A stretch of DNA of 62,159 bases, from contig RSEE01000124.1 of assembly GCA_003971905.1 (NCBI GenBank), positions 124,001-186,159 of the forward strand, given 5' to 3'. The position numbers and the translations under genes are program-made. The notes below the pieces were generated by a model that worked only from the letters and a program-made list of their open reading frames with translations, had not been told where the DNA came from and did no database searches. The stretch is from Moniliella sp. 'wahieum' (Eukaryota). Shown here one piece after another: positions 1-62,159 of the stretch. Every line of letters starts with the position of its first letter. Position 1 is the stretch's first letter.

Positions 1-803
1 GCTTCATCTCGGTAAAGAGGATGACACGGCTGAATGCCGGGTCAGAGGCAAATCGACAGCCAATTGTCGCTTCTCCTTCTGGCCACAAAGATGACGTTCT
101 GCTTAATCTTTTCCGCCGTCGTGGCAGCTGGGGTGACCTCGACCCGAACAGGGTCGGGCCGGAGAAGGGTGTGAGCCAACTGGGCCACCTTCGGGGGCAT
201 AGTAGCCGAAAAAAAGTAATTTTGCCGTTCCGACGCCGGCGGTAACTGAGCAACGATCCTGCGCACATCATGAATGAACCCCATATCCAACATCCGATCC
301 GCTTCGTCCAGAACAAACGTTTCGACCTGGTCGAAACGAACGTAGCCTTGGCCGTGCAGGTCAAGCAGGCGACCGGGCGTAGCAATCAAAACGTCCAGCC
401 CACCCTGCAAGGCGGTCGTCTGAGGCTTTTGGCCGACGCCACCGTAAATGACAGCGTGATGGATGCTCGATGGGCCTGAGCTGGGCAAGTGTTGGCTGTA
501 CTTGGCGATGGAACGGTCAATCTGGATGGCAAGCTCGCGGGTTGGGGTGACAATGAGGGCACGGAAAGCGTTGGTTACGCGCTTGACTGGGTGGGTGGAG
601 AGACGCTGAAGGATGGGGAGAGTAAAGGCAGCAGTCTTGCCCGTACCGGTCTGGGCAATCCCCAATAAATCTTGGCCCGCTAGCGCAACGGGGATCGCCT
701 GGGCCTGGATGGGGGTCGGATGGACGTACCCAGCCATGGCAAGCGCCTGTTGCAGCTCGGGCCGCAGCCCGAGGCGGGCGGTAAACTTGGTCGCGGTGTT
801 CAT
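1..803 (-). CDS. rhlE: DEAD-box RNA helicase, bacterial RhlE-like (3' part runs off the window)
   Basis: ATG at 803. Motifs: Q (PTPIQAQAIP), I (AQTGTGKT), Ia (PTRELA), GG (YGGVGQKPQ), Ib (TPGRLLD), II (LDEADRMLDMGFIHDV) and III (SAT). After a frameshift near 70-50 it reads DPAFSRVILFTEMK (motif IV). No intron is visible. Confidence 0.85.
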
Positions 804-2550
804 GGGCGGCTGAGGGGGTGAGTGATGGAGGGAGGCCAAAGAAGAAACACAAAGAAGAAATCCAAGGCCTGCTCTGCCCGGCGGAAGAAAGGAGGGGGGC
901 AGCCCTACGTGGACGACGGCACAAGTGGAGTCCATTCCATCGATCGGTGCAGACAAAACTTGCACTTTTCTTTCAACTTTCAAAAGACGGGCTTCAAAGA
1001 TTCAACGTGTTGTTTGTTTCCTGCCATGGTGGAAGCCCTGTTCAACATGGTGGACTTGACCGAATATAGTTAGTAGCGGTGTGCTGCTGCCACACTTCAA
1101 AGGGCTGATCGCACCCAATGGACGGGTTGGAGCAGGTGGAAGCTTCAGGAGCTGTTGGCCTGGTAGCGGCGATGCTGCTGGAGTGAAACAACGGTCACCG
1201 CACACTAAAAAAGACGTGACACAACATGTGTTGGGCTGTGCGTACACCGCCGGAGAACCAAGAGGCCAACACCACACGGCCATCCTGGCAGCCAGCGCGA
1301 AATTAAAGAGAACGTTTGGGGTGAAAAGCGGTGCAGAAGCCTGAGGGACAAGAGCAACACTCCTTGGCCCCGCCCTAGCAGCTTGAATCAGGAGCTTCAA
1401 TAAGCTTCAAGCTTGAGCGCGCGGTCAATCTCAGGCCAGCCCCCTTGCGGTGCCGACAAAACGAGGAGTTATATACGGTTTTACCTTGTAGGCATTGTCC
1501 GGACTTTTATATGCTTCTACTGTAAGAGGCAGATAGGGGCTCTTTAGTATAGGTGGTTTGTATGATACAAGACCACTAACTACTTACTAACGTCCGGTGG
1601 GCTCGCTGGTGATCCAGATTGAGCATCTCGATACGTCTGATGCATCTCTTCTCCTTTTTAGACCGCGGTCTGGACAGTCCGGTCCGTGTGTCGTCTTGTC
1701 CCCATGTTTTTGGCCTGCTGCGCCCAGCTTGTGCTACAGAGCCATGTGGAGCCTTGCATGGACGCTTTTTAGCCTATTAGGCTTTCTGCCTAAGGCAACA
1801 ATGGCCTTTAAGCGCTATAAGCCGCTGTTGAATCGATCGCTCCCGGGCGGCATACCTCTCTCCTACTACATCCTGTGGGGCATTGGACTAGCTCTAGGGA
1901 CCATATCTCGCTCGTGTACAAACAATCTCTGTTCTCTACAACTTGCGAGGACCTGACCCAGTCATCAGTCACAAACAGTAACTTTACTAGTCAATGTTCA
2001 ACGCTATAGTTACCTTTCCTTACCGTCCGACCGTCCCACCCCACAGTTCGCCCCACAATTGAAGTGGTCGTCCCACACACAGATCGAGGCCGCCGGTAGT
2101 CACTTCACTATCGGCGCGCTATACCAAACAGGCGTCTTCATTGTGTCAGGTGATCGGCGTTATCAACCACAGTGCCTCAGCTTCCTCGACGCCTCAGCCC
2201 GATCAGCCTAAAGCCGACTCGTACGCTTGCGCTCCCGCACGGCACACACCAAGCTCCCAACTGTCCTGTCGTTCCAGCACCGATGCAGAGACGAGACACT
2301 GCCCCAATCGAGCAAAATAGGTAAGTACGAGAAGAGACTAGGGCGGGAAATGGGGAGATCACGAGAGAGTATGCGTGTTTTTCTGCTGAAGAACTGACGA
2401 GGCGGTTGGGAGGAAGAGATATTGCGGGTAAATCCTGGGAAGGTATACGAGAGTGGGAATAAGGACGAAGGTAGCGGATGAAGTTTCATCCCATTCAGAT
2501 CGAAGCTGACCGGCTGACTAGTGACCTAGTGACCGCTATTCATTTATCCG

Positions 2551-2710
2551 TGTCGGCCTCGCTACTACCACAGAATGTGAGCACTGAACGTCGTATTGGA
2601 CTAAGAAGCTTCTGCGACTGACTCGTCCAGAAGACTGGTGCGAGCTCGGAAGGAATGAAAGCTGACTCACGTGACTCAGGGTCCGCGCGGTCCTAGGACG
2701 GATGTCAACA
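2551..2710 (-). repeat. 3' LTR of copia element
   Basis: TGTCGGCCTC...GATGTCAACA. Matches 7397-7556 apart from two single-base indels. Confidence 0.95.
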
Positions 2711-5700
2711 CCCCCGCTGACCGGAGGGCCCAGTCATGTGGACTGGATCCATCTCCTCGACGCGGAGTTGAGCAAGATGGCTTGTCAGGGCGGGACGGCC
2801 GAGAGGCTTGGTGAGGACGTCCGCTGGGTTCCTTTCGCCGGGGATGTGTACAAGTATGGCCTCGCCCGAGTCCACGTGTTGCCGTACATTGTGGTACCGG
2901 ATCTTCAGCTCTCGGAGCTTGCCGGTGCTGCCAAATTTGTGGGCGAGATCGACGACAGACTTATTGTCGCAATACCAATGAATGGGTGTACCCTCGCCGA
3001 TGGCCCCAAGCTCGATCATGATGTTCTTGACATAGTTGGCGTCAACCAGTCCATCATATCCTGCCGTATATTCGGCGGCGCGGGGTACTGGTAACGCTCT
3101 TCGGCTGAAGAATGGATCGCCACGACACCGGCACACCGTACACCATCAGTAGGCATCCAGATGTGGAGCGTGCCTGGATGGGATCTCCCGCCAAGTCGGA
3201 ATCTGTATACAGCGCAATGGCCGGTGCATCTGATGTTGGGGTAACCTCAGGCCTTTCCTCGAGTATGGTACAGGTAGCGAAGGAAGTCATCGACTGCTTG
3301 ATGATGCTGCTGCGATGGGTCGGCAGCGGCTCTGCTGAGGGCCGTGATAGCGAAGAGGGAGTCAGGCCGGCCCATTCGTGCAGCCCACAGTCCCGATCCG
3401 ATCTTCCCTGATATGCCTTGCGCAAGGCTGGGAGGGATGGGGGTTCAGGGTCGGCACGGGGCGGTATCCGTACGGGATGTGGGAGAGTCCGGATCCACGG
3501 GGCTTTGAGTGTGGTGTTGCCACCACTTCCTCGATGAACTTTGGTTGGCTCAGGTACAGCTCCCCACCGATCCGATCGTATTGGCATCCCAGGTGGTAGT
3601 GAAGGGGACCGTTACCACGAACATCAATGTGTGTTTATCTCGGCCATAAACTCCTCGTACTTTTGGTGTGACTTGCATGCGAGGAGCAGATCGTCGGTGT
3701 GGACCGCCAGGAGGATCTGCTCACCCGGTGGTGCAGCGCGCACGAACAACAGGGCTCGGTCAAGCTTTGCGTGAAGCCGAGCTTGTCACGCAGCAGGTTC
3801 CGGATGTATCGTGCCCAGTTTGCTCCGCTTGATGTAGCCGTATAGACTCTTCTTGAGACGCCACACGCGACCACCCGCTTCGGGGAAGTAGGGGGGGGCG
3901 GATGTAGACTGCTTCTTCGAGGGGGGCGTTCAGGTACGCTGCATTGACGTCCGCCGAGAAGAGGCCAAACTTAACTTACTCTCGGCCAGCACGACGAGGG
4001 TCAGGGATGGCAGGTGTGCGCACCGATGGTGCGAACGTCTGGCCCCAAGTCTCGGCCGATTGGTTGGTGTCCGCCCGCGAAAGCGCGCGCGGTGGCGCAG
4101 GAACCGGCCCTCGGCGTCCGTCTTTGTGGTGATGCGCCATAGTCCTATGAGGATTTGTGCACCGGTGGTGGGTACGTAGCCTCGTAGGTGCCGTATCGCG
4201 CGAGTGTGGCCCCTCGTCGGCCATAGCCTGCTTGACCATGGCAAAGGAGGGGTGAGTCTCGAGACCCTTGAGCGTCTTGGGAGCGAGGGGTACGCCATCC
4301 TTGGTGAGCTGAACCGTGTCCGGGTGGATGGGTGCGCTGAGAGCAGTCATGGCGGCGTATTCGGGAGGTTGAACTGTGTCGGCAAACGGGGGGGCGGATG
4401 TGTCAGGTAGGGGGCGGGCGATGCCGATCTCTGGTGCGGCGCAGTGGGGCGTGGCGGCTGCAGCACGAGCATGGTAGGTCGTGTCGGTGGGGTCGTCAGC
4501 GATTGGGAGTGTGTGCAGGTCGAGGGAGGTGCGGTGGTGCGCTGGCGGAGGGGGTAGCGGCGCGGAGGGGGGTGGTGGTGGGAGCGGGTGTCTGGGGTGT
4601 GGCGGCGGTTCGGGGCATGGGTGCTGCCGCGGCTGGCGGAGTAGGGTTAGCGTCTTTTCACTGTCGATTTTAATTTGAGGTGATTTGGAGATGTCGGGTG
4701 GGAAGTGGTCGGGGTGGAGGGGGTAGATGGCGTTGCCCCATTTGTACGGTTTCGACCAGCGGTAGGTGAAGGTACCCAGGGATGGTTGGTATGTGGCGAA
4801 GAGCCATCCCTTTGATCCGCGCTGATGGTGGTATCCTACCAGCATACCTTCCTCTGCCCGCGCGCTGAGCTTGTGCTCGCGGCGTGACTCGGGCAGATGG
4901 AGGTATGCAACGCGGCCAAAGGGTTGCATCGGTAACGAGTATGCGTGGCCTTTGTATCGCTCAAATCGCGATTTGTTGTCTTCCCCGGATGTTTTGAGTG
5001 GCATTGTTTTGGGTGAAGCACGCAGCGTGGAGGCTGTGTTCCCACCAGTCCGACGTCGGAAGACCTGTACCCAAGAGCAACTGCCTTGCACGAGTCGTTA
5101 TGGTTCGGATGGCACGCACAGCCACACGTTGCTAGCACTCTGCCCCGGATTGTCCGTTCTGACGTGATGCCTTGCTCGTCCAGAAAAGGTTGCAGTGCGC
5201 TTGTCAAGGGGGCGTTGTCCGTGCGCAAAGTCCGCAGCAGTCTGTCCGGGCCGTAGCGTTGCTCCCGCAATATGAGGTTCCGCAGTTCCTTCGTTGCAGC
5301 GCCCTTTGTCGGGATCGCTGTGTGTGAAGACGTACCGCGTGAAGTCATCAACGGCGACGAGGGCGTATCCGTGCCCCATGCCGGTTACCCGGGGGAGGTA
5401 CTACGTCGACGTGGAGGACCTCGAAAGGTCTTTTGGATCGGAGGCGGTCCCGGCTCGGATGGGGCGATGCTGTCGCTAGTGCCACCGCGCAGTTGGGCAA
5501 TCCCACTCTGAACGACAGAGGGAGATATGCTTGGCTGTGACGCGGAGGCCTGCGGTTTCCGATCGTGTAAGCCAGGGGAGGAGGTCGATGGCTGCGTGGT
5601 TCCAGCGTTTGGGGCTTTAGAGACGTGGTCCAGGGCCAGGGATGCTGCGAGGAGTTTGGGGTTGAGGGTGGGTCGGCCGCGGTTTGATCGGTTTGGGTCG

Positions 5701-6118
5701 CCATGGCCCGCAGGGGTGTGGGTGGCGTTCGCGGGTTGTGTAAGATCGTGAATTGATAGTCACTGCCGGTTACTTTTCGTAGGGTGGATCCTGGGTTACC
5801 AAGCCAGATACCCTTCTGGTGTGGGGCGAAGTATGATGCGATTCCGGTGTTCGACAGGTGTGCTACACTGACGAGATTTCGGCTGAAACGGGGCATGTAT
5901 AGGCTGTTGGGGAGTTTATCTCCATTTGGTGTCCTCCTAAGCATCGGATACGGATTGTGGCCGTGCCTCGTCCTTCCGCCTTTACATGTGTCCCGTTAGC
6001 AACCTCTATCTCGTCGTCGCAAGGGGTCATGGATGTGAAGACGGATTTGTCCTTTCAAATGATGGGAATGCCCCACTGTCATATAATGCCCGATGATTCG
6101 CATTTCGCCCCCGAGTTC
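2705..6118 (-). CDS. pol: Copia pol (protease, integrase, reverse transcriptase, RNase H), frameshifted
   Basis: Protease YDSGA at 6083-6069, then IEVANG. Integrase LHVDV, YALVAVDDFTRY, LRTDN and EEGMLVGY. RT remnant GRFLRHRAR. RNase H YTDSDLAG..RSTSG, VSWRS, AEY, YCDNKS and NPADVLTKPL. Confidence 0.92.
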
Positions 6119-7346
6119 CTAGTAGTCAGCTGTGCCCGCATCAACGTCAATCACTTCAGACTCGGGAGAGCTCGCTCTTGAGCGACGTGAGTTGGCTCGG
6201 CCTGGGTTGCGCGGAGGGACAACAGGTTTTATTAGACGTCGCGCTGCGCCAGGGTTTGGTTGGTGCGTCTTGCCCTTGGTTTGTGTCCGCGAGGTTGTCG
6301 TCGCGGCTTTGCCCCCGCTGGAGTTTTTTTCCCCCGCTGTGGGTCGTCCCCCGCTGTCGGGTCGAGTCCAAGGCGTTCCTCCGTTGACCGGCTTGCCTCC
6401 GTTTCTCTTCCTTTCTCCACCGGGATACGTGGCGGCTGGTATGTCCATCACGGCCTGCCGTAACTTGTCTAGACTCGAGCGCTCTTCACGCTGGCGAATG
6501 CTCATGTCGCGTAAGCCGAGTAGGATCCCAGTGCGTTCCTGCTCTTCCGTAAGTGGGATGCCCGCGGTCAGGCTTGCACTGATCTCTTCCATGTAGTCGA
6601 GGTAGTCTCGACCCGATCGGTTTCCTTGGTCGGCGCGAAAGTAGCGATGAGTAGAGGCCCTCTGTTTGCGGTAGGCGTATATCCATACCGCTGACGCAGC
6701 ATGTTCAGCGTGTCCTGGGTGCATGATATTTCGTGGTGGGTGCGGATCGTCCGGAAGAGGGTTGACGGCATGGCTTCCCTAAGAAGGTTGTGCAAGCGTC
6801 TGTCGAGGTCCTCGGTGAAGTAGCGGGAGCTGCGACCATTCTGGACGACGTCGCTTGGTGGGGGTGGGCATCTGTTATCGCGAAGAGAATTCGTCCCAAG
6901 CGCTGTAGGCGGACGGGTCTTTGTTCAGATCAGGCCATTGATATTCTTGTGGGAGACTCGCGTAGTGATCTGTAAAGGTCGTACTCGGTCGCGAGGCTGC
7001 GCCTGTAGGTGCCCCCAAAGTTCGTTGGGTTGAGTTTCCATTTGGTGGATGTTTTGCACCACAAAATTCGTAGCCCGTCGAACCCAGTTTGTCGTGATAG
7101 ACGTAGGTTCGTCCTTCCATCCAAGCCACTCGGCTCTGTCGTGTATAGCTCTGTTGATCTTCTCTTTAACGACATCGATGTCGTTCGTCTTCTTGAACCA
7201 CAGGTGCGCTTCGGCGCAAAGCATCATGAGTTCCTCGTTGTCGGTGCCAATCGGGGGGATCGCGACCGGTTGGTGTCCAGTAATCGCGCTTGTTCACCAT
7301 TGTGGTGTCGCTGACCGAGAGATCGGTGTTAGCGTTGGCGCCCATG
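6119..7346 (-). CDS. gag: Copia gag-like ORF (frameshifted), ending in TAG at 6121-6119
   Basis: Chained ORF pieces between the 5' LTR and the protease (6925-7227, 6568-6795, 6119-6724), ending in a basic low-complexity region. Assigned by position. Confidence 0.7.
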
Positions 7347-7396
7347 GTGGGTGTAGTTTTGGCCAGCTCAGGGATGAGCAGATAAGGATGTAACTC

Positions 7397-7556
7397 TGTC
7401 GGCCTCGCTACTACCACAGAATGTGAGCACTGAACGTCGTATTGGACTAAGAAGCTTCTGCGACTGACTCGTCCAGAAGACTGGTGCGAGCTCGGAAGGA
7501 ATGAAAGCTGACTCACGTGACTCAGGGTCCGCGCGGGTCCTAGGACGGATGTCACA
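7397..7556 (-). repeat. 5' LTR of copia element
   Basis: TGTCGGCCTC...GATGTCACA, followed by TSD ATCCG. Confidence 0.95.
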
Positions 7557-11812: not shown

Positions 11813-14800
11813 TCACTCGCTCGACCGCTCTGCCTGGTCGCAACGCAGCAGCACCGGTGCGCCGAGCTGGACCGACCCGACGGACGTGCGCTCGGGTGCC
11901 CAGGCAAGGTGCGTGCCAAATACGACACGGCCATTGGAAGCTCTGCGGCGCTGAGAGATGCTGAGTAAAGTTTGAGGCAACTTGCGTCCGGTCCACTGAT
12001 CGATAGCTACCATTTGACACCTTCTACACGGGCCGAGAGAAACGAAGGTTTCTCCTCCCACTTGGATCCGGCTCAGTTGGTCCCAGGTAACGCACACCAC
12101 GTGCCTGCCTCGGCTTGCTGCGCGGCGAGGAGAGAGGCGTCGTTGGCGGTTGCAGCTGGAGGCGAAGGAGCTGGCGTGGTCCATGGTGATGCACAGGGAA
12201 CAAGTGGGTCCATACGTCTCGGTCGCTTGGCCGGGCGCTCTTGTCCTCCGTTCAGGTCCGCCTCCGTATCCGCCTCCGCCTTCGCCTCCGCCTCCGTATT
12301 CACATTTGCATTCGTATCCGAGCCAAGCGAAGCGACCTCATGCCCAGGCTGAGAGGGAAGAGGAGAATGGACAGTATCTGGGGGCCCAACGACGAAATTG
12401 GCGCGGAACCTGCGCGCGACATTACGCCAATGTAAGTTGCTCAAGGGCTTTTCGCCCTTGGCAGCCAAATCCTTCTCGATCCACGCTGCGACCGCCTGGA
12501 CCGCGCCTTGGTGCAGCAGTAAAAAGGGACTTTCGTTAGCGAGCAAGATAGGTGGTGGGTGGGTAGGGCACCATCCAATCCGTCGGGTCCGGAAAGGTCA
12601 GAGGAGGGAAGTAATTTGGTATGACGATGTGCTTGGTCAGGTGGCAGACGGGCCAGGTAGCTCTTCGACCGAGGAAGCGAGAAAAAGCATGGGTGATATG
12701 GGGTGCATCGTAGATCCGAGCGAGGACATTATCCGCGCACACGCGAAGAGGTTGGTCGCCCTGTGCGTTGGTGCCATACGGAATGAGCACAAGATCGTCG
12801 TCGTCTAAGTTGCCTGGGGCTTCCGGGTGGATTGGGGTGTTGTACGGCACGGGTTCGGGCCGACCGCGCGCAGCACAGTGAACGCGCGGAAACCGAATTT
12901 CCAACACTTGCTTGGCCCGATCCACAAACGGTCGGATAGTCGCCATTCTCGGTTCTCGTTTTTGACTGATCGCTCGCCCCGTATCCAGATCAATCACGCA
13001 CCATTCCCGGTCATGCAACAGTCCCGATCGAGTCAAGGGCCACGCCACCTCGGCTCCTTGCTCTCCCACTGAAAGTTCTTGTCCTGCACAGGACTGATCG
13101 GATACAGCGTCGCCATCTTCAACACGATGTCCGACGTGGGGGCAAGGGGAAGGGGAAGGGGAAGGGGAAGGGGAACGGGACGGGCAACTTCTTGCTGTTT
13201 TGCTGGCATGTCAGTCTGGTCCACAAAGTACATTTTGATAAACTCGATCAACTCATCCACATCCGACGCCGTGTTCCACACGCTCAACGAGGCACGAATT
13301 GACGCGGCTGGATCATCCTCGTCCGGCTCGGCAGGAGGGGGTTTGGGTTGGTCGGTGCCACCTGTGCCTGGATCGGTGTCGATGCCAGGTCCGGGGCCGG
13401 CCCCGGACCCTGCGATCGCCGCATACACACGCGACCGGGCCAAAGGACAAGAATCTGGTGCGTCCACTACGGCCTGAGCGGCCGTATCGCACCCCGCACC
13501 TTGCTCGTACACCTTCCACAGCAACTCCTCCGCATGGGCAAGTTGTTCTTCTGTTGCTGGTCCAGCTTGGTCGGCGGGGCAAAGAGTGTGGGAGACGGCG
13601 ACGCCTGCATTGCAGTGGCGGCCTACGCGAACATGGACGTTGGCGAGGGAAGCAAGACGTGCGAATTCGGAGGCGGGAACACGAGTTCCAGTCGAAGAGA
13701 GCAGAACAAACGCAGCGGTGGGACCTTGATCGCGATGGGACGTATCGGATGTGTCGGACGGATCAGACGGGTCCAAGCCTGCGCCTGTGGCCCATTGAGC
13801 CGCCTCGTGGCTGGACGACAAGACTCGTACAGCCGGGGTGCCATTGGCATGGCGGACGTGGGCAAGGCGCGTGTGAAGGTGGTAGGCAAGAAAACGTAAG
13901 TGTGCAGCTTGCTTGTCCCACGCGCCTAACACACGATGACACGCTTGCATCGCATGGCGCAACGCCACAATACCATGCACGTTGATCGTGCCATCCTCGA
14001 ACCGGGCCGGGAGACTACTGGGCCGAGCCACTTGGATGCCCTTCTGCGGCAGTAGGACCGAGACGGTGCCACCGCCATAATAAGGTTTGGCACGCAACAT
14101 GGATCCGCTCGAGGACTTGACCACCAGCCCGCCCAGGCCCGTTGGTGCGCCATATACCTTGTATAGAGAGAAGGCGATGAAATCGGGGGCAGAGTCGTAG
14201 CCTTCCTCGGTGGAAGAAGGTAGGGTCATCCGGTTGGAAGAGAGGTAGGCGGCGGCATCAACCAAGATCCGAGGTCGCGGCTGGGCAGCACAGAGATGGG
14301 CGAGCAACTGATCGTATTTACGTCCGGTTGCATTACATTGGAGCGGGAGGATGGCCAGCTGGTCGTGCGTCCAGGGATGGTGACGCATGTGTGCCTCGGT
14401 GAGTGCACCATGGGTCAGCCCGCGCGCCTGGGCAATCCCCGCAGGCCCACGACCGAAGTGTGAGCCTCGAGAAGATGGACGAGGTGCGGGCCCGGTGCCG
14501 AGGTGGAAAAGGCAAAGCTCTGTGCAACCGTTTGGAGCGAAGCGGTAGTGCCAGAGGTAAAGATCAGGTCCCAGCCGCCGCCGTCGCTGGGCAAGGAAAA
14601 GAGTTGGGTCAACACGTCGTGGCGAGCCTGCTCGACCATGTTGGCGGCACGGACGCCTGCTGCACTGAGGCTGTGCGGGTTGGCGTAGAAATGCTGGGCG
14701 AGGTCGTCGGCCCAGGCGCGGACGCCGGAGATGGGGGTAGGAGGCATGCCAGCCGCATCGAGGTAGAGCCCGCCAAAGTTGGTGCCATCGGGCAAGGTGT

Positions 14801-14876
14801 GGGCGTGGAGGGCGGGGAGCTCGGCGTGGCGGATGCGATGGATGTAGTCGTTGTAGGCTTCGTGGGCATTGGGCAT
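11813..14876 (-). CDS. hxB: Molybdenum cofactor sulfurase (aminotransferase-V + MOSC_N + MOSC), frameshifted
   Basis: LYLDAAG, YANPHS, IFTSGTTASL, EAHTSVVGLR, PLP-lysine motif SLYKVYGAPTGLG, GGGTV, RFEDGT, VRVGRHCN. MOSC_N: GLLHDREW..SQKREPRM. MOSC: ANESPFLL, RFRANFVV, PCRRC. Confidence 0.92.
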
Positions 14877-35563: not shown

Positions 35564-38500
35564 ATGCAAGCCCATGACTTTTACAAGTCCTATGAAGACC
35601 ACCTCCCCTCCTGGCATGATTATGACGATGAGGATAACCGCCCTAATGCTGTTTCCTTGCATGACTCCACATCATTGTTGCCCCAACCCGCCGCCTCTGA
35701 GCAGAATGATGTGCTTCTTGCCGATGCTGCTGGGAAGCCCAATGCACTGTCCAAGCCAGTGTCGGTACCTGTGCCCATGATGCCAGAAGAACCAGGCCAG
35801 TGTGGATGGGCCATCAAGCGTCTGCTGCTCGTAACACCAGGATGACCGACACTGTCACTCATCCCTTGTCGCAGCCGCCATTGCATCCTCAACCGAAGGC
35901 CGCGTCTCCAACAATAGTTTCTTCTTTTTCTGATAGGGCTAGCACTTTCCTGGGCTCGCTCACCAGCAGCCAAGGCTCCACCCTCCCCTCTTCATCGAAG
36001 TCAGCGCTCAGGTCGGGATGCCTGGGTTGACCGTCGTACATGAGTACTCGGGCAATAACTCAGACGAAGAGCAGTCGGGCCGCTTTGTAAACTCGTACTT
36101 CGACGACCAGCCTGCCAGCATGCATTACGACCTGAACGCGAGCGAGTCGATGCTCCACCACAGACATCCATTCCCTACCACCGACTTCCCTTCATTATTC
36201 GATGGTGCTTCGGTCCCTGGAGAAAAACGAAAGGACACTGCTGCGTTCGTCATGGAATCATTGGGCGAAGACGAACAATCGCCAGAGCAGATGGAACTGT
36301 TAAGAGAAGCGAAGAGTCCAATCAGTTGGAATACAAAGGGAGGGCCCACCCCAATGTCCGGGCTAGCGTGCCCTCAGATGATGATCCCACGTTGCCTATC
36401 CACACCCTGCGTGTATGGCTCTTAGGACCATCGTTTGCGACGGCTTTTTCCAGTCTCTATGTCGTCTTTACCGCATGGGGGTGGACCGTTACTGTAATTC
36501 AGTCGGCTGTGCTGGTACAGATATTTTGTTGGCCCTTGGGCTTTCTTATGTCCAAGGTACCATATCCTTCCTCTTGGCCTCTCGCTTGGTTCATTAACCC
36601 AGGTCCCTTCAACATCAAGGAGCACGCGCTCATCTGCATCATGGCCACGGTTAGTATCGGACCTTCGTTGTCGCTCAATGTGCTGATGATTCACAACATG
36701 CGCTCCTAAACTTCCCGGGGCCGACAGGGTACAAGGTTCTCTTGATGATTTCTAGTTCTTGTATGGGTCTGTCGTATGCAGGGCTGTTTGACCGCACACT
36801 GGTCTTGCCTGGACGAATGCTCTGGCCCACCGTGCTCTCTACCTCAGCTTTGCTCACCACGCTGCACCGCGTACGCGCTAGCAACTGGCCCCGTCAAAAG
36901 GTGTTTTATGTTACGCTTGTGCTTGCCTTTGGCTGGGCCTGGGTGTCAGGCTATGCCTTTTCGGCTTTTCAGGCATTTGCGTACGTTATTTGCCATGTTT
37001 GCTCTCAGGCCCCGAAGTGGACTACTACTAACCGACTTTCATGCCCCATCTTTACTATACTTATTCGCTGTGGCGATGCCCGGGCGACTGCGCGCTTCAA
37101 TATTTATACACGCATCTAATACCAGATGGATCCCTTGGTGTGCTCCCACTTCATACGTCCCTAACCTCCTCTTTGGTGGCCAGGGTGGTATGGGTCTCTG
37201 GCCTACGTTTTCGCTCGATTGGATCACCATCTGCGAATCCTTGCCGTCTCCTCTCATCACGCCATTCTTTGCTCAAATCAACATCGTGATCGGATACCTC
37301 ATCTTTGGTGTCGTGGTTCCATCGCTCATCACCTTCTCTCACAAGGGCTCAGCACAATACATGCCATGGCTACAGTCCGTTTCTTTTGACCGGTTTGCTC
37401 GATCCTACCGGTTGAAGGTTGTGCCCTCTCATACCGCTCCCCATCGCGGTATCACTTTTAACGCCGATTCATATGAGTCGTACTCCAAGCCTTATTGGCC
37501 GGCCACCAACTTGGTGTCCAAGGGGTGTTCTCTTGCTCTGGTCCCGGCAGTCTGGGTTCATTTTCTACTCTTTGATTTGATTCCCACCGTGAGTGATTAC
37601 CGGCTTCCAGCTCAAGAGGAGGAAGACGTGCATGCTCAACTCATCCAGCGATATCAACCCATTCCTGCTTGGTGGTGGCTTGCGCTGTTTCTGAGTTCGC
37701 TGGCTATGGCGGTAGGCGCCTGCGAGGGGTACCATACAGGCTTGCCCATTTGGGCCCTGCTTCTCTCCATCTTCCTTGGCTTCGTTTTTGTCCTCCCCCT
37801 CGGCATCGTAACCGCCCTGACAGCCATCACACCTTCTCTCGATTTTGTTTTCAGATGGATTGGCGGCTACGTCGTTCCGGGCAATGCAGTCCCATGGATC
37901 CTTTTCAGTCTCTACCCTACTGTCGGCGTGAACCAGTCGATTCAGATGCTGTCGCAACTCAAGTTGGGTGTGTACTTTAAGTTGCCTCCACGCAGCACCT
38001 TTCTCAGTATTATTGCCATCCAGCTCGCATCCTGTGGCATACAGATCGTCACAGCCCATGCGCTCGGGGCGGGAGGTTCAACCACAGTATTACTTGCCGA
38101 CGCGGTGAGTATCGGCCTAGTGGGTTCCAAGCGTACATTTGGCCAAGGGGGTGAATACAACTGGATCAACTTCTTCTTTCTTGTTGGATTTCTCGCACCC
38201 ATCCCCTGCTGGCTATTATGTTATTATCGCGTGAACCTACCGGCACCTTTCGAACAGTTCAACGTCCGTCGGCTCCGCGATGTTGTTCACACACCGTTGA
38301 TATTGACGGCTGTTCCCCAGACATACGATTTTTATCCCGTGTCTGTGACCAGCTGGGCCTGGGTTGGGCTCCTTGCTCGGTTCACCCTGAATCGCAGTCG
38401 ATTGAGGAACTACTTTGCGGCACTGTGCTACGTCTTGTCATCCTCTTTGTACACGGGTTCGGCTGCCAGCTACTTTGTCGCCTATATGATTCCCGTGTTT

Positions 38501-38713
38501 TCGGGTAAGTATGGCAAATCCCTCAGTCCACCAGTTTGGTGGGGGACCCAGATTCAATGGATCCCGAATGAGGCTCTACCAGCTTATGGCTCAGACGAAA
38601 GGGAGCCGTCCTTGTTTTGGAAGAATTCTTCTCGCCTCTTTCATTCCCATGCAGGTGCCTTTGCCCCTGCCCCCAATGGCATGTGGCTTCCACCGCCGTC
38701 TTCCCACAGCTAA
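35564..38713 (+). CDS. OPT-family oligopeptide transporter, frameshifted; start uncertain
   Basis: HPNVRASVPSDDDPTLPIHTLRVWLLG, INPGPFNIKEHALI, SLDW..SPLITPF, EDVHAQLIQRY, KLGVYFKLPPR and many TM segments. Intron at ~36982-37125. Confidence 0.9.
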
Positions 38714-48796: not shown

Positions 48797-48940
48797 TTGC
48801 TCTCCTCTCTCCTCTCTCCTCTCTCCTCTCCTCTCTCCTCTCTCCTCTCTCCTTTCTCCCTCTCCTCTCTCTCTCCTCTCTCCTCTCTCCTCTCTCCTCT
48901 CTCCTCTCCTCTCCTCTCTTCTCTCTCTCTTCTCCCTCCC
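48797..48940 (+). repeat. Pure C/T polypyrimidine tract, (CTCTCCT)n-like
   Basis: ~140 bp made almost entirely of C and T, between the convergent ICE2 and ROK1 3' ends. Confidence 0.93.
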
Positions 48941-49015: not shown

Positions 49016-51034
49016 CTATCCATTCTCGTCGCCTTTGTTGATAAGTTCCCCCCCTCGGGCGCTATGCCTCATTAGTCGCTCGACATATGCCGCATCGTCT
49101 ACATGAATAGCTTTTGCATATAGCCAACCTGGCCACCTCCATGCCCAAACCTCCATACCCAGATTTGTGGGGCGACCTGGTCGGCCGGGTGTACATGTGC
49201 ATTTCATGGGCTGGCCAGTCGTTTCTTCTTGTGCTTCTTGGGAGCGGCAGGTTTGCGCTCCCCTTGTTCCTCCTCTGTCGTGTCCATCTCACCCGCTGCA
49301 ATGCGGGCGCGGTGCTTTTTGGTCATCCCCTGAAGCGCCTTGGGATGCTTGCTCGTCTTGCCGCCCCTCAAATGGGAAGGAAGCACGCCACTGGCTTCGC
49401 GGACATCTTGTCGCTTGGGCATGCTGTCGTAACTTTTTCCGGTCGCCCGACGAGGGTCCTTTCAACTCGTTCATCCACTCTGGCACCTCCTGCCCCGACT
49501 CGCGCATCACATTCACCACCATCTTGAGGTGCGGCGCATCGTCCGTGGTAAAAAACGTGATTGCATCACCACTTTGCCCTGCTCGACCCGTTCGACCGAT
49601 CCGATGAATGTACGTTTGGCTCGACTGGGGGAAATCGTAATTGATCACTGTCTTGATGCCCTGCAGGTCAATTCCACGCGCCAACACGTCGGTCGCGATC
49701 AGCGCCCAGGTTTGGCCAGCTTTGAGGTTATCGAGCGCGCGCTGCCGCTGTCCAGGGGTGCGGTGGGCATGCATCGTATCCACTCGCAAGCCATCGTAGA
49801 CCAAATTGTGAAACAAATGGTTGGCCCGCTCGTTGCTTTGCACAAAGAGCAACGCTGGTGGTTTGAGGCGACCTTGCTGGACCAAATTCCGCAGTGCAAG
49901 CAACTTGCCTTCTTCGGACCCAACAAATTCCAATGTCTGGCTGACATGCTCCGATGCGCCGTCCCGGTGGCCCACCGCGACACGCACAGGGTCGGTCGTA
50001 AAGCTCCGCGCTAACAACTCGGTCCCAGAAGGCAAGGTGGCACTGAACAGGGCCGTACGGCGGGCCGGGTGCGAGGTGGCAGCCAAAACGTCGTCCATTT
50101 GGGACAAAAGTTGTCCTCCAACAGCCGATCCGCTTCATCCAACACCAACAACTCCACCTCGCGCAAATCCACTTCTTCTTCCTGCACTGCACGTACCAAC
50201 CGTAGCGGCGTACTGATCAACACGTCGGGCGTCTTGACCCGGTGCGTCTGCTCAGCCTTGGACCGCGACATGTTCTCGCCCAACTGTTGGATCTTCCACC
50301 GCTTGGAGCCCTTGAGGTGCCCGTCCGTACCGTACGCAAGTACAACCAGGGTATCGTGGATCTGGGTCGCCAGCTCGCGCGTGGGAGCCACAACCAGCGC
50401 CCGCGCACCGCCCTTGTCCGTCTTGGGCCGGGGCGCACCGAGGAATGTAAGAGGGGAAGACAGTATGGCCAACGTTTTGCCCGACCCCGTAGGCATTGGC
50501 AAACACGTCCCGCCCCGAAAGTAGCGCTGCCATCGCGGCTTTCTGAATCGGGGTAGGTCGGAGCCAGCCATGCTGGACCACATGTCGCACGAGGGCCTTG
50601 TGTACGCCCCACCGTACGCTCAGCTCGTGCCAGGACACAAGCGGTGCAGGCGGGTCGCCCGACAACTTGAGCCGGTTGGCACGGCAGAAGGAAGCGACCG
50701 CATCAGGCGCCAGGGGACCCGAACCGTACTCGGGATCGTCAAATCCTTCGCCTGTATATGCCTCTTCGGGTTGCTCGCGTTTCCTCTTGCCCGTGTCCTT
50801 GGGCGCAGACTTGCCCTTGCTGCTCACCGATGCGAAGAAGTCAAGTTCGGGGGGGAGCGCGAGCGGCGCGGCAGCGGCGGCGGTGGCGGCGGGAGGCGGC
50901 TTGCTCGCGGCACTGGACGCAACGGGCGGGGTGCGCTTGGCCTGGCCGAACAGCTGCGCATCGGAGGAGAAGCGATTGGTGTCGAAGCGGATGCCGCCGC
51001 CGGCGGTGAGCGTGTGGAAGACGTCGGAGCTCAT
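49016..51034 (-). CDS. ROK1: ATP-dependent RNA helicase Rok1/DDX52, frameshifted; end uncertain (49016-49289)
   Basis: MSSDVFHTLTAGGGIRFD, PTPIQ, PTGSGKT, PTRELA, STPLRL, LDEADRL, FSAT, EEGKLLALR, PPALLFVQS, TDVLARGID, YIHRIGRTGRAG, VNVMRESGQEVPEWM. Confidence 0.94.
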
Positions 51035-60500: not shown

Positions 60501-62159
60501 GGGCTCGAACGAGGTAGTGGCGTTGCTCAGGCGTGAGATGCTTGGGGTTGGAACTAGGTTTGGCCGCAGGAGGAGGTCCAGAGGGGAGGACAGGTGACGA
60601 AGCCTTGTCCAATGGATTGACATGCGGTGCAGGGGGCGGGATGGGGTCTCGTGTCGTCCTAGGATCCGGAGAGAGAGGAGGAACACCTCCATACACCGAG
60701 CCTAGAGCCGATTGAATGCTTCGTCCCTGTGCATTGGTCGCCGTAAGCTTCGCTAGTGCATCTTGCGTCAGAGGCGTCTTAGGTTTGGGCAGTGTCTTCT
60801 GCAAAAGAAGTGTCAGTATGCTACTGTTAATTGCCCCGTGCAACCCACCCATTCAAAGCCAAAAAGAAAGAAAAGGACACACCTCAATCTCACGCTCATC
60901 CTCTAGCTCCTCCATCCTAGACGATTGTCCCTGCGATCCCGAGAAAGCTCGCGAGGAAGGCTCAGCCCTTGGGTCGCGCTTGATCCCCCCCGGCATCAGC
61001 GAGTTGGAAGTCAAGCTCGGGGAGAGAGTGGGTTACCGTACTTGTCGTACAGCGGCACCTCTTTCTTCGCCAAGGGAAACCCACGGGGTTTGCAGCCTGC
61101 TGAGCGGCTTTAGCTTGGCGTTGCTGTAAGATGGTCGTGACGGACGCCGACGAAGCTGGGGGGAGCGGTCGTGCGGCCGTGCGAGGGGTCGGATTGGAAT
61201 TGGCATTAGGATTGGAATTCAGATTCGCATTCGTATTGGCGGCGAACTTGCGCGGAGCATTGCGAGGCGTGCCTACCCCGTTGGACTCCCTTGGACGAGA
61301 AACTTGGTCGTCGTAGCGGGATCGAGCGTACTCGTCCTCTGCCCCCCACTCGGTCTCCACTTCCTCATCGGCATACATGGGCCCCGGTTCCTCGTACATC
61401 CCAGCTGCAGTTCGAGCACGGGGCGGCTCATACTCGGCATCGTCAATATACTCCTCCTCTTCGTACTGCTGCATGGGGTAATCCTCCATTGTCCTTGAGC
61501 GAAGCGGAAGAGCGGTCGACCGGGACGGGCGTTCTGAGTCGGCCGAGTCTGAGCAGCCTGCGAAACCTGCGAAGCGGGCGGGTACCGCGGGTCAATGTAC
61601 GGCGCTTCCTCCTCGTCATCAAAGTCCTCCACTGTCGACCGCTCCTGGTCGTCCGAACGAACGTCGGCTTCCCATTCGCGCGCGCGAGCTGCGGCCTGCG
61701 CAGCAAGCGACGCGACCTCTCTTTGTTTTCGGGTGGGGGCGGGAGAGGCGCGGGGGCAACAGGGAAGTGGAAGTAGTAAAGTCGCGAAACGCGTCCGGGA
61801 TGCGCGGCGAGGGAGGTATGGCAGCTCCTTCACGGGTAAAGCGCGCGTTGACCATCGATGCGGTTGGAGCCAGACGACCATTCAGCCGTTGGGCCCATTG
61901 GCCGAGATGACAGAGCGAGCATCGTGGTCATAACCATTGAACGTGCGAGGTACATCCAAGCTGCGTTTGGGCATACGCGGTACATCCATACTGTACTTGG
62001 GCATACGCGGCACGTCCATACTGCGCTTAGGCATGCGAGGCAGATCCATGCTGAGTTTAGGTGGGGGCCGATTCATGTCGATGCTTTTCTTAGGCAGGGG
62101 ACGTTGGACGTCGATACTGCGCTTGGGCACGCGCGTCATGTCCATCGATTGCTTGGGCA
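57515..62159 (-). CDS. PXB + DUF3818 domain protein (Ypr097w/Lec1-like); 5' end beyond window, 3' end approximate
   Basis: PXB-like HLTPEQRHYLVRALVSLQL..LRHLF..LPGL..FWQSRVQ. DUF3818-like EVATFLY..IHTLFPW..LRYSNP..LLAKPAGSKSLLQRI, LAHADL..DDLQAFLDDL, LCKRHEDALYGLVH. Whether the acidic and repetitive 60900-62159 part belongs to the same gene is inferred. Confidence 0.78.
61940..62159 (-). repeat. Coding 30-33 bp tandem repeat encoding PK(R/K/L/Y/Q)S(M/I/L)D units
   Basis: PKQSMDMTRV PKRSIDVQRPL PKKSIDMNRPP PKLSMDLPRM PKRSMDVPRM PKYSMDVPRM PKRSLDVPRT. Confidence 0.88.

Follow-up and report, generated by a model that had tools for sequence, protein, structure and literature searches.

An RhlE-type DEAD-box helicase gene of probable bacterial descent linked to fungal genes

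Results

Features of the locus

The window (the whole stretch of 62,159 nt that was analysed) carries at its left edge, on the minus strand, part of a DEAD-box helicase gene of the bacterial RhlE type. Upstream of the start codon lie a pyrimidine-rich leader, a non-coding flank, an LTR element and then fungal genes. Coordinates of the main features are listed here, P0001 being the RhlE protein of Aliidongia dinghuensis (526 aa):

2 to 46, minus strand: continuation of the helicase gene in a third frame (-3), SDPAFSRVILFTEMK, matching P0001 residues 244-258, start of Helicase_C (tblastn)
49 to 87, minus strand: continuation of the helicase gene in a second frame (-1), CGQKEKRQLAVDL, matching P0001 residues 230-242 (tblastn)
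87 to 803, minus strand: RhlE-type helicase, RecA-like domain 1, residues 1-239; open frame with motifs Q, I, Ia, GG, Ib, II and III
468 to 485, minus strand: PSSGPS insertion, 18 nt in-frame, in the surface loop that leads from helix 89-103 to strand 116-119 (AF2 model)
804 to 903, minus strand: pyrimidine-rich leader, 74% C+T over 100 nt and 80% over the last 40
904 to 2541, no strand: non-coding flank with a host-like dinucleotide signature and without Pfam or NCBIfam family or similarity to rhlE flanks
933 to 935, minus strand: upstream in-frame ATG in a stop-to-stop frame reaching 1001; would add 44 residues if used by a transcript beginning farther upstream
2542 to 2690, no strand: LTR copy, 149-nt core, 97% identical to 7388-7536
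2691 to 7387, minus strand: interior of the LTR element, its sole Pfam match being an SH3-like domain in the ORF at 3976-5097
7388 to 7536, no strand: second LTR copy, direct repeat of 2542-2690

The helicase gene

DEAD-box proteins have two RecA-like domains with ATP bound between them; they clamp single-stranded RNA and open or remodel duplexes locally. The helicase frame opens with an ATG at 803-801 and runs for 253 codons to a TGA at 44-42 (literal ORF 803..42). The ORF described by an earlier, sequence-only reading of this DNA is thus real and lies on the minus strand, but it ends at 42 only by way of two 1-nt frameshifts. All four peptide strings quoted in that reading (LLGIAQTGTGKTAAF, YGGVGQKPQ, LDEADRMLDMGFIHDVRRIV and DPVRVEVTPAATTAEKIKQ) are present in the minus-strand translation of 803..42.

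Pfam DEAD matched residues 30-207 (E 2.8e-44, 151 bits). The complete series of domain-1 motifs of DEAD-box (SF2) proteins, from Q through III, was found: Q (GYVHPTPIQ) at residues 25-33, I (AQTGTGKT) at 50, Ia (PTRELA) at 87, GG at 121, Ib (TPGR) at 142, II (DEAD) at 166 and III (SAT) at 199. An abrupt start at the Q motif had been pointed out before, and the initial Met indeed stands six residues ahead of the conserved Phe of the Q region (F7), the same as in bacterial relatives. No intron was seen in the visible part of the gene, which had been described as intronless. An AF2 model built on a 44-row alignment (mean pLDDT 92.8, pTM 0.89) displayed an alpha/beta topology with alternating strands and helices, as in a RecA-like domain. 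Among 77 columns conserved to at least 97% in 240 homologues, the window helicase (labelled WIN in alignments and trees) retains 76, the sole change being L to V.

Frameshifts and assembly noise

A tblastn search of P0001 against positions 1-1200 returned three colinear pieces. Residues 1-229 matched 803..87 in frame -2 (67% identity), and the two short continuations listed above followed after 1-nt frameshifts in T-runs near nt 86 and nt 47. The literal stop at 42 is due to these two frameshifts, homology continuing beyond it to base 2. The gene extends past the window edge, so that besides domain 1 the window includes only ~15 residues (SDPAFSRVILFTEMK) from the start of domain 2. An intron at the frame changes was rejected since the aligned residues are contiguous, without a gap.

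Frame changes were also encountered in conserved host genes. The molybdenum-cofactor (MoCo) sulfurase gene (11825-14855, minus strand), aligned with a 69%-identical homologue (P0241), fell into six pieces separated by five gapless frame changes near 14433, 13096, 12660, 12560 and 12082, all at short homopolymer runs; the segments beside them were 51-76% identical to P0241. The host's eukaryote-type DEAD-box gene (49295-50641, minus strand) displayed two gapless frameshifts within its catalytic core, one between GRDVFANA and TGSGKT and the other after DEADRLLEDNF. Inspected by eye, all nine sites (seven in host genes and two in the helicase) are short homopolymers apparently called short, mostly by one base. 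This pattern is the mark of a noisy, indel-prone assembly, and the two helicase frameshifts are most likely homopolymer errors of the same origin, not gene decay. Because conserved host genes bear frameshifts of this kind, those of the helicase are not readable as pseudogenisation. The practical lesson is that frameshifts in this noisy assembly are no evidence of pseudogenisation; with an assembly this prone to indels, apparent pseudogenes in the window need read support before they are believed.

Family assignment and relatives

The top NCBIfam model for the helicase was RhlE (NF007882; 3.8e-81, 273.4 bits, profile positions 5-237 of 456), whose 743-bit cut-off applies to whole proteins and is out of reach for half a protein. 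Runners-up were RhlE2 (259.9 bits), RhlE1 (256.7) and CshA (213.7), then RhlB, SrmB and DbpA.

Proteins were searched in a collection of 5.8 billion clusters in two length ranges (444-2000 and 139-443), with ~8000 candidates scored and the best 120 retained in each. These best 240 listed relatives displayed 57-67% identity and every named one was bacterial: Aliidongia, Azospirillum/Azospirillaceae, Stellaceae and Rhodospirillales stood on top, and Bdellovibrio, Myxococcota, Bacteroidota and Verrucomicrobia were also represented. No eukaryote-labelled protein occurred among the best 240 listed, about one quarter of the database proteins being named, and other fungi contributed no orthologue to this list. 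Cluster labels were inspected for ten unnamed relatives; none was eukaryotic and one cluster was Azospirillum. The nearest ESM Atlas clusters were 100% Bacteria. The window protein itself was absent from the 5.8-billion-cluster collection.

Among solved structures, the best bacterial matches were Hera (155 bits), CshA (152) and DeaD (152), and the best eukaryotic ones DDX23 (150), Vasa (149), Dbp2 (141), DDX3X (136) and Ded1 (121). These scores are about half of the 296-311 bits reached with bacterial RhlE, and no eukaryotic helicase exceeded 150 bits among all PDB chains. Eukaryotic Dbp2/DDX5, Ded1/DDX3X, Prp28/DDX23, Has1, Dbp10, Dhh1 and eIF4A share the SF2 DEAD-box fold and motifs with the window helicase, but scored only 109-150 bits against ~300 for bacterial RhlE. 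The bacterial RhlE type proposed by the sequence-only reading is upheld by the concordance of NCBIfam ranking, PDB scores, named relatives and tree placement (see below). The contrast that it drew with fungal DEAD-box helicases also held: the helicase falls outside every eukaryotic DEAD-box family represented among solved structures.

In comparison with bacterial RhlE (NF007882, nearest P0001), the window helicase shares the start point and the domain-1 motifs, including DEADRMLDMGFIHD, and is colinear over residues 1-258. Identity to RhlE of Rhodospirillales (P0001) amounted to 64-67% by BLASTP and to 69-70% over the columns kept for the trees. It differs from bacterial RhlE by its fungal gene neighbours, a GC3 of 0.695 against a median of 0.885, four insertions and a long branch. 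A common RhlE-like core is shared with RhlE1 and RhlE2 of P. aeruginosa (NF053711 and NF053710; 257-260 bits, slightly under the generic RhlE model). RhlE1 and RhlE2 are distinguished by their C-terminal extensions, and a basic, low-complexity C-terminal extension is typical of RhlE; in the present helicase both regions lie beyond the window. Bacterial RhlE-like proteins have been linked to ribosome assembly, RNA decay and cold adaptation. They are summarised in PMC8266600 as widespread in Proteobacteria and poorly understood.

Phylogenetic placement and donor search

Two quick maximum-likelihood trees were built with IQ-TREE (LG+C20+F+G4 by PMSF) from rows picked by hand among the 240 proteins and 80 bacterial loci. 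One tree had 70 rows (44 proteins and 24 loci, plus a piece of the eukaryote-type helicase of the window); the other had 56 rows (37 proteins and 18 loci), the eukaryote-type piece being left out. The helicase was placed inside a bacterial RhlE clade in both, of 26 rows in the former and 21 rows in the latter. Both clades consisted of Azospirillaceae, Aliidongia and Rhodospirillales, with an SH-aLRT of 94, just under the mark of 95 and from quick trees only. The end branch of the helicase was long (0.53 and 0.70, against medians of 0.20 and 0.25). Nesting in a conserved eukaryotic or mitochondrial clade, named beforehand as the outcome that would speak against a transfer, was not observed in either of these two quick trees. 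For comparison, the window's eukaryote-type DEAD-box gene (49295-50641) displayed 27% identity to P0001, and the piece of it included in the 70-row tree had a branch of ~10.

A closer bacterial relative was sought in three further samples. In a GTDB pattern scan with one genome per species, the top identity among the matches listed was 61%, a scan that missed the best lineages. One alphaproteobacterial order displayed a match in 33 out of 33 genomes, with a top identity of 62%. A sample of 401 genomes from alphaproteobacteria gave matches at E<=1e-70 in 50 of them, with a top identity of 64%; one of these genomes is unpublished and none of the conclusions depends on it. No close bacterial donor, that is none above 67% identity, was thus present in the collections searched.

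Insertions in the helicase domain

A PSSGPSS insertion had been noted previously; it is real in the form PSSGPS (residues 107-112) and absent from all 240 nearest homologues. Residues 101-110 were modelled with a mean pLDDT of 87. Four small insertions were identified altogether: A9 and PSSGPS, each found in 0 of the 240 homologues, PA at 189-190 in one and P216 in two. A conserved core combined with Pro/Ser-rich loop inserts and a long branch is compatible with purifying selection in a lineage that is unsampled among bacteria. The simplest candidate for such an independent history is a fungal lineage.

Composition of the gene and of its upstream flank

The helicase ORF displayed a GC content of 0.59 and a GC3 of 0.695, the latter within the range of 12 host coding segments (0.565-0.795). 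In 54 homologous segments from alphaproteobacteria, GC3 had a median of 0.885 and ranged from 0.634 to 0.95, only two of them being at or below 0.70. Dinucleotide distance (delta*, x1000) to the host part of the window was 91.8 for the helicase ORF. Host material gave similar values, with a median of 91.1 for 15 coding chunks (seven of which were higher) and of 98.5 for 300 random pieces of 717 nt (174 higher). The median for 80 homologous bacterial segments was 158.7, seven of the 80 being as near to the host as the helicase ORF. Codon-usage log-likelihood under a host table was dropped as evidence: it mostly follows GC3, and 36 of the 80 bacterial homologues scored at least as high as the helicase.

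The flank at 804-2540 (1737 nt) displayed a GC content of 0.53 and a delta* of 64.7; at that length the host median was 66.6 and 105 out of 200 host pieces were higher. None of 67 bacterial flanks upstream of rhlE was as near to the host (minimum 66.9, median 140). No stop-to-stop frame of the flank exceeded 134 aa, whereas the longest frame of the bacterial flanks was never below 182 aa (median 351); this comparison is weaker, since assembly indels may shorten frames. No significant family was detected in the flank with Pfam (26 frames) or NCBIfam (15 frames), three sub-threshold Pfam matches having E values of 0.006-0.07. Comparison of the flank with the 80 bacterial loci by tblastx gave no match, and a blastn search with 1-2541 as query found, elsewhere in the window, only a chance-level match of 33 nt.

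The leader had been called pyrimidine-rich and counted in favour of a transfer. The first point stands (74% over 100 nt on the strand of the gene); the second does not, the leader being a merely host-typical feature. The window has 16.9 such strand-biased tracts per 10 kb, whereas the 80 bacterial loci have only 2.4. No Shine-Dalgarno-like purine run was seen by eye ahead of the ATG. The GCCCATG start context, likewise offered as support, has no value as evidence, its -3 position being C.

As judged from these comparisons, bacterial homology ends at the start codon, and everything upstream resembles host intergenic DNA. The likeness of gene and flank to the host and not to bacteria agrees with the earlier suggestion of a transfer rather than contamination, the domestication suggested with it being conjectural. 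Both an ameliorated composition and a flank of host DNA, the marks sought for a transferred gene, were found in the GC3 and delta* of the ORF and flank.

The fungal neighbourhood

Pfam searches on 26 long frames of the window identified Sec10, ICE2, OPT, a PX-associated/DUF3818 domain, tRNA pseudouridine synthase, Aminotran_5, Helicase_C and a retroviral-polymerase SH3-like domain. Among named proteins, those most similar to the MoCo sulfurase came from Tilletiaria anomala (41%), Thecaphora frezii (37%), Naganishia and Ustilago/Pseudozyma, which points to a host from a seemingly isolated Ustilaginomycotina-like lineage.

The element bounded by the two LTR copies (~5 kb, 2542-7536) is a degenerate copia-like element. 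No reverse transcriptase or integrase-core match was found in it by Pfam on 16 frames. Its frame at 3976-5097 is long and proline-rich.

The helicase lies on the same assembled sequence as this element and the fungal genes, so the contiguity with a fungal retrotransposon claimed earlier holds at the level of the assembly. The label Rok1, given earlier to the helicase at 49-51 kb, could not be confirmed: this gene is of eukaryote type and its best PDB matches are DDX23/Prp28 and DDX3X.

Discussion

Origin of the helicase gene

The window helicase probably results from a genuine horizontal transfer of an RhlE-type gene from a bacterium to a fungus, a reading that withstood all the tests applied here. 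As far as sequence comparison goes, the donor would have been of alphaproteobacterial, Rhodospirillales-like ancestry and the recipient the nuclear genome of an Ustilaginomycotina-like basidiomycete. The transfer would not be recent, because composition has become host-like and loop insertions are present: the gene would have drifted to the composition of its host and gained four small Pro/Ser/Ala-rich loop insertions while keeping all catalytic motifs. The helicase was found nested in a bacterial clade without close eukaryotic homologues, about one quarter of the database proteins being named, and it is linked to the LTR element and to fungal genes within the assembled window (linkage at assembly level). 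Several observations weigh against a transfer: the gene stands at the very edge of the window, its visible part is devoid of any strictly eukaryotic gene feature, its literal sequence has two frameshifts, and the listed relatives include no orthologue from a second fungus that would speak for vertical inheritance within a fungal clade. Nor are the composition tests fully specific, seven of 80 bacterial segments being as host-like in delta* and two of 54 similar in GC3. That the gene is truly contiguous with the fungal DNA, has a C-terminal half that is intact, and is expressed and functional in the host is inferred.

An assembly artefact, in which DNA of a contaminating or associated bacterium became fused to the end of a fungal contig, for instance through a chimeric long read, seems unlikely. 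It would agree with a gene cut by the window edge, where base 1, if it is a contig end, could belong to the overhang of a chimeric read. It would also agree with the position of both frameshifts within 90 nt of base 1, as where consensus depth drops at a contig end, and with the visible noise of the assembly. Yet such an artefact presupposes a join no more than ~100 nt from the start codon, as 804-2540 is non-coding and host-like, free of family matches, closer to the host in delta* than any of the 67 bacterial flanks and with no ORF above 134 aa (bacterial minimum 182). The donor would, moreover, have to equal the host by chance in GC3 and dinucleotides, unlike 52 of 54 alphaproteobacterial homologues. 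No bacterium above 67% identity appeared in the collections searched, and the presence of insertions that none of 240 homologues shares agrees with a long separate evolution. Little probability is likewise given to a dead relic, that is a true transfer with real frameshifts, or with integration of no more than a 5' fragment, so that no helicase is made. The sequence as given does hold two frameshifts, and the C-terminal domain lies beyond the window; but 239 codons run without a stop, motifs are intact and only one of the 77 highly conserved columns has changed. Both frameshifts resemble, as homopolymers one base short, the seven found in two conserved host genes, one of which encodes a core DEAD-box helicase, and homology remains colinear after each shift.

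Vertical inheritance of an old eukaryotic DEAD-box lineage, for instance one derived from the mitochondrion, is very improbable. The alphaproteobacterial affinity in the trees would suit it, as would the upstream in-frame ATG, which could provide an N-terminal extension. Against this, the helicase is 57-67% identical to bacterial RhlE and nested among these proteins, not sister to them; no eukaryote label occurred among the best 240 listed, the nearest ESM Atlas clusters were entirely bacterial, and eukaryotic PDB helicases remained at or below 150 bits against ~300 for bacterial RhlE.

Possible role and comparison with known transfers

Under the preferred reading of a bacterium-to-fungus transfer, the product would carry out ATP-dependent local RNA unwinding or remodelling by means of two RecA-like domains, by analogy with any DEAD-box protein. 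More tentatively, and with somewhat greater doubt than confidence, the gene may encode a working nuclear RhlE with loops reshaped in eukaryotic style and a pyrimidine-rich promoter of host type, kept by a smut-related lineage. If so, the fungus would have gained a bacterial-type RNA remodeller beside its own helicases, serving for example RNA metabolism in the cold or under stress, and an organelle role could be envisaged if the upstream ATG added a targeting peptide.

Bacterium-to-fungus transfers are known, for example of metabolic and stress genes in Malassezia and other fungi, and their cargo consists mostly of metabolic, transport or stress enzymes. The present case resembles them in that an intronless gene of bacterial type with ameliorated composition stands beside native genes; it differs in its cargo, an RNA helicase being unusual. 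If confirmed, it would be a rare transfer of an RNA-processing rather than a metabolic gene, and a helicase acting on host RNAs would offer a simple way of testing how easily proteins that handle RNA pass from one domain to another. No report of an RhlE-type transfer into fungi was found in the literature at the level of titles and abstracts.

Other features of the window

Some minor features were observed outside the helicase locus. A pure pyrimidine (CT)n-like tract of ~140 nt with CTCTCCT repeats occupies 48800-48940, just 3' of the end of the eukaryote-type DEAD-box gene; among the 105 strand-biased tracts of the window, none is stronger. No telomere repeat was detected at either window edge. 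Near the right edge, at 61946-62061, a 30-nt tandem repeat is present in 3.4-3.9 copies with 79% matches. The OPT oligopeptide transporter gene (36059-38713, plus strand) is split into two ORFs of the same frame, 36059-36709 and 36749-38713, which lie 40 nt apart; the split may be due to a short intron that keeps the frame, to a stop or to an error in the assembly.
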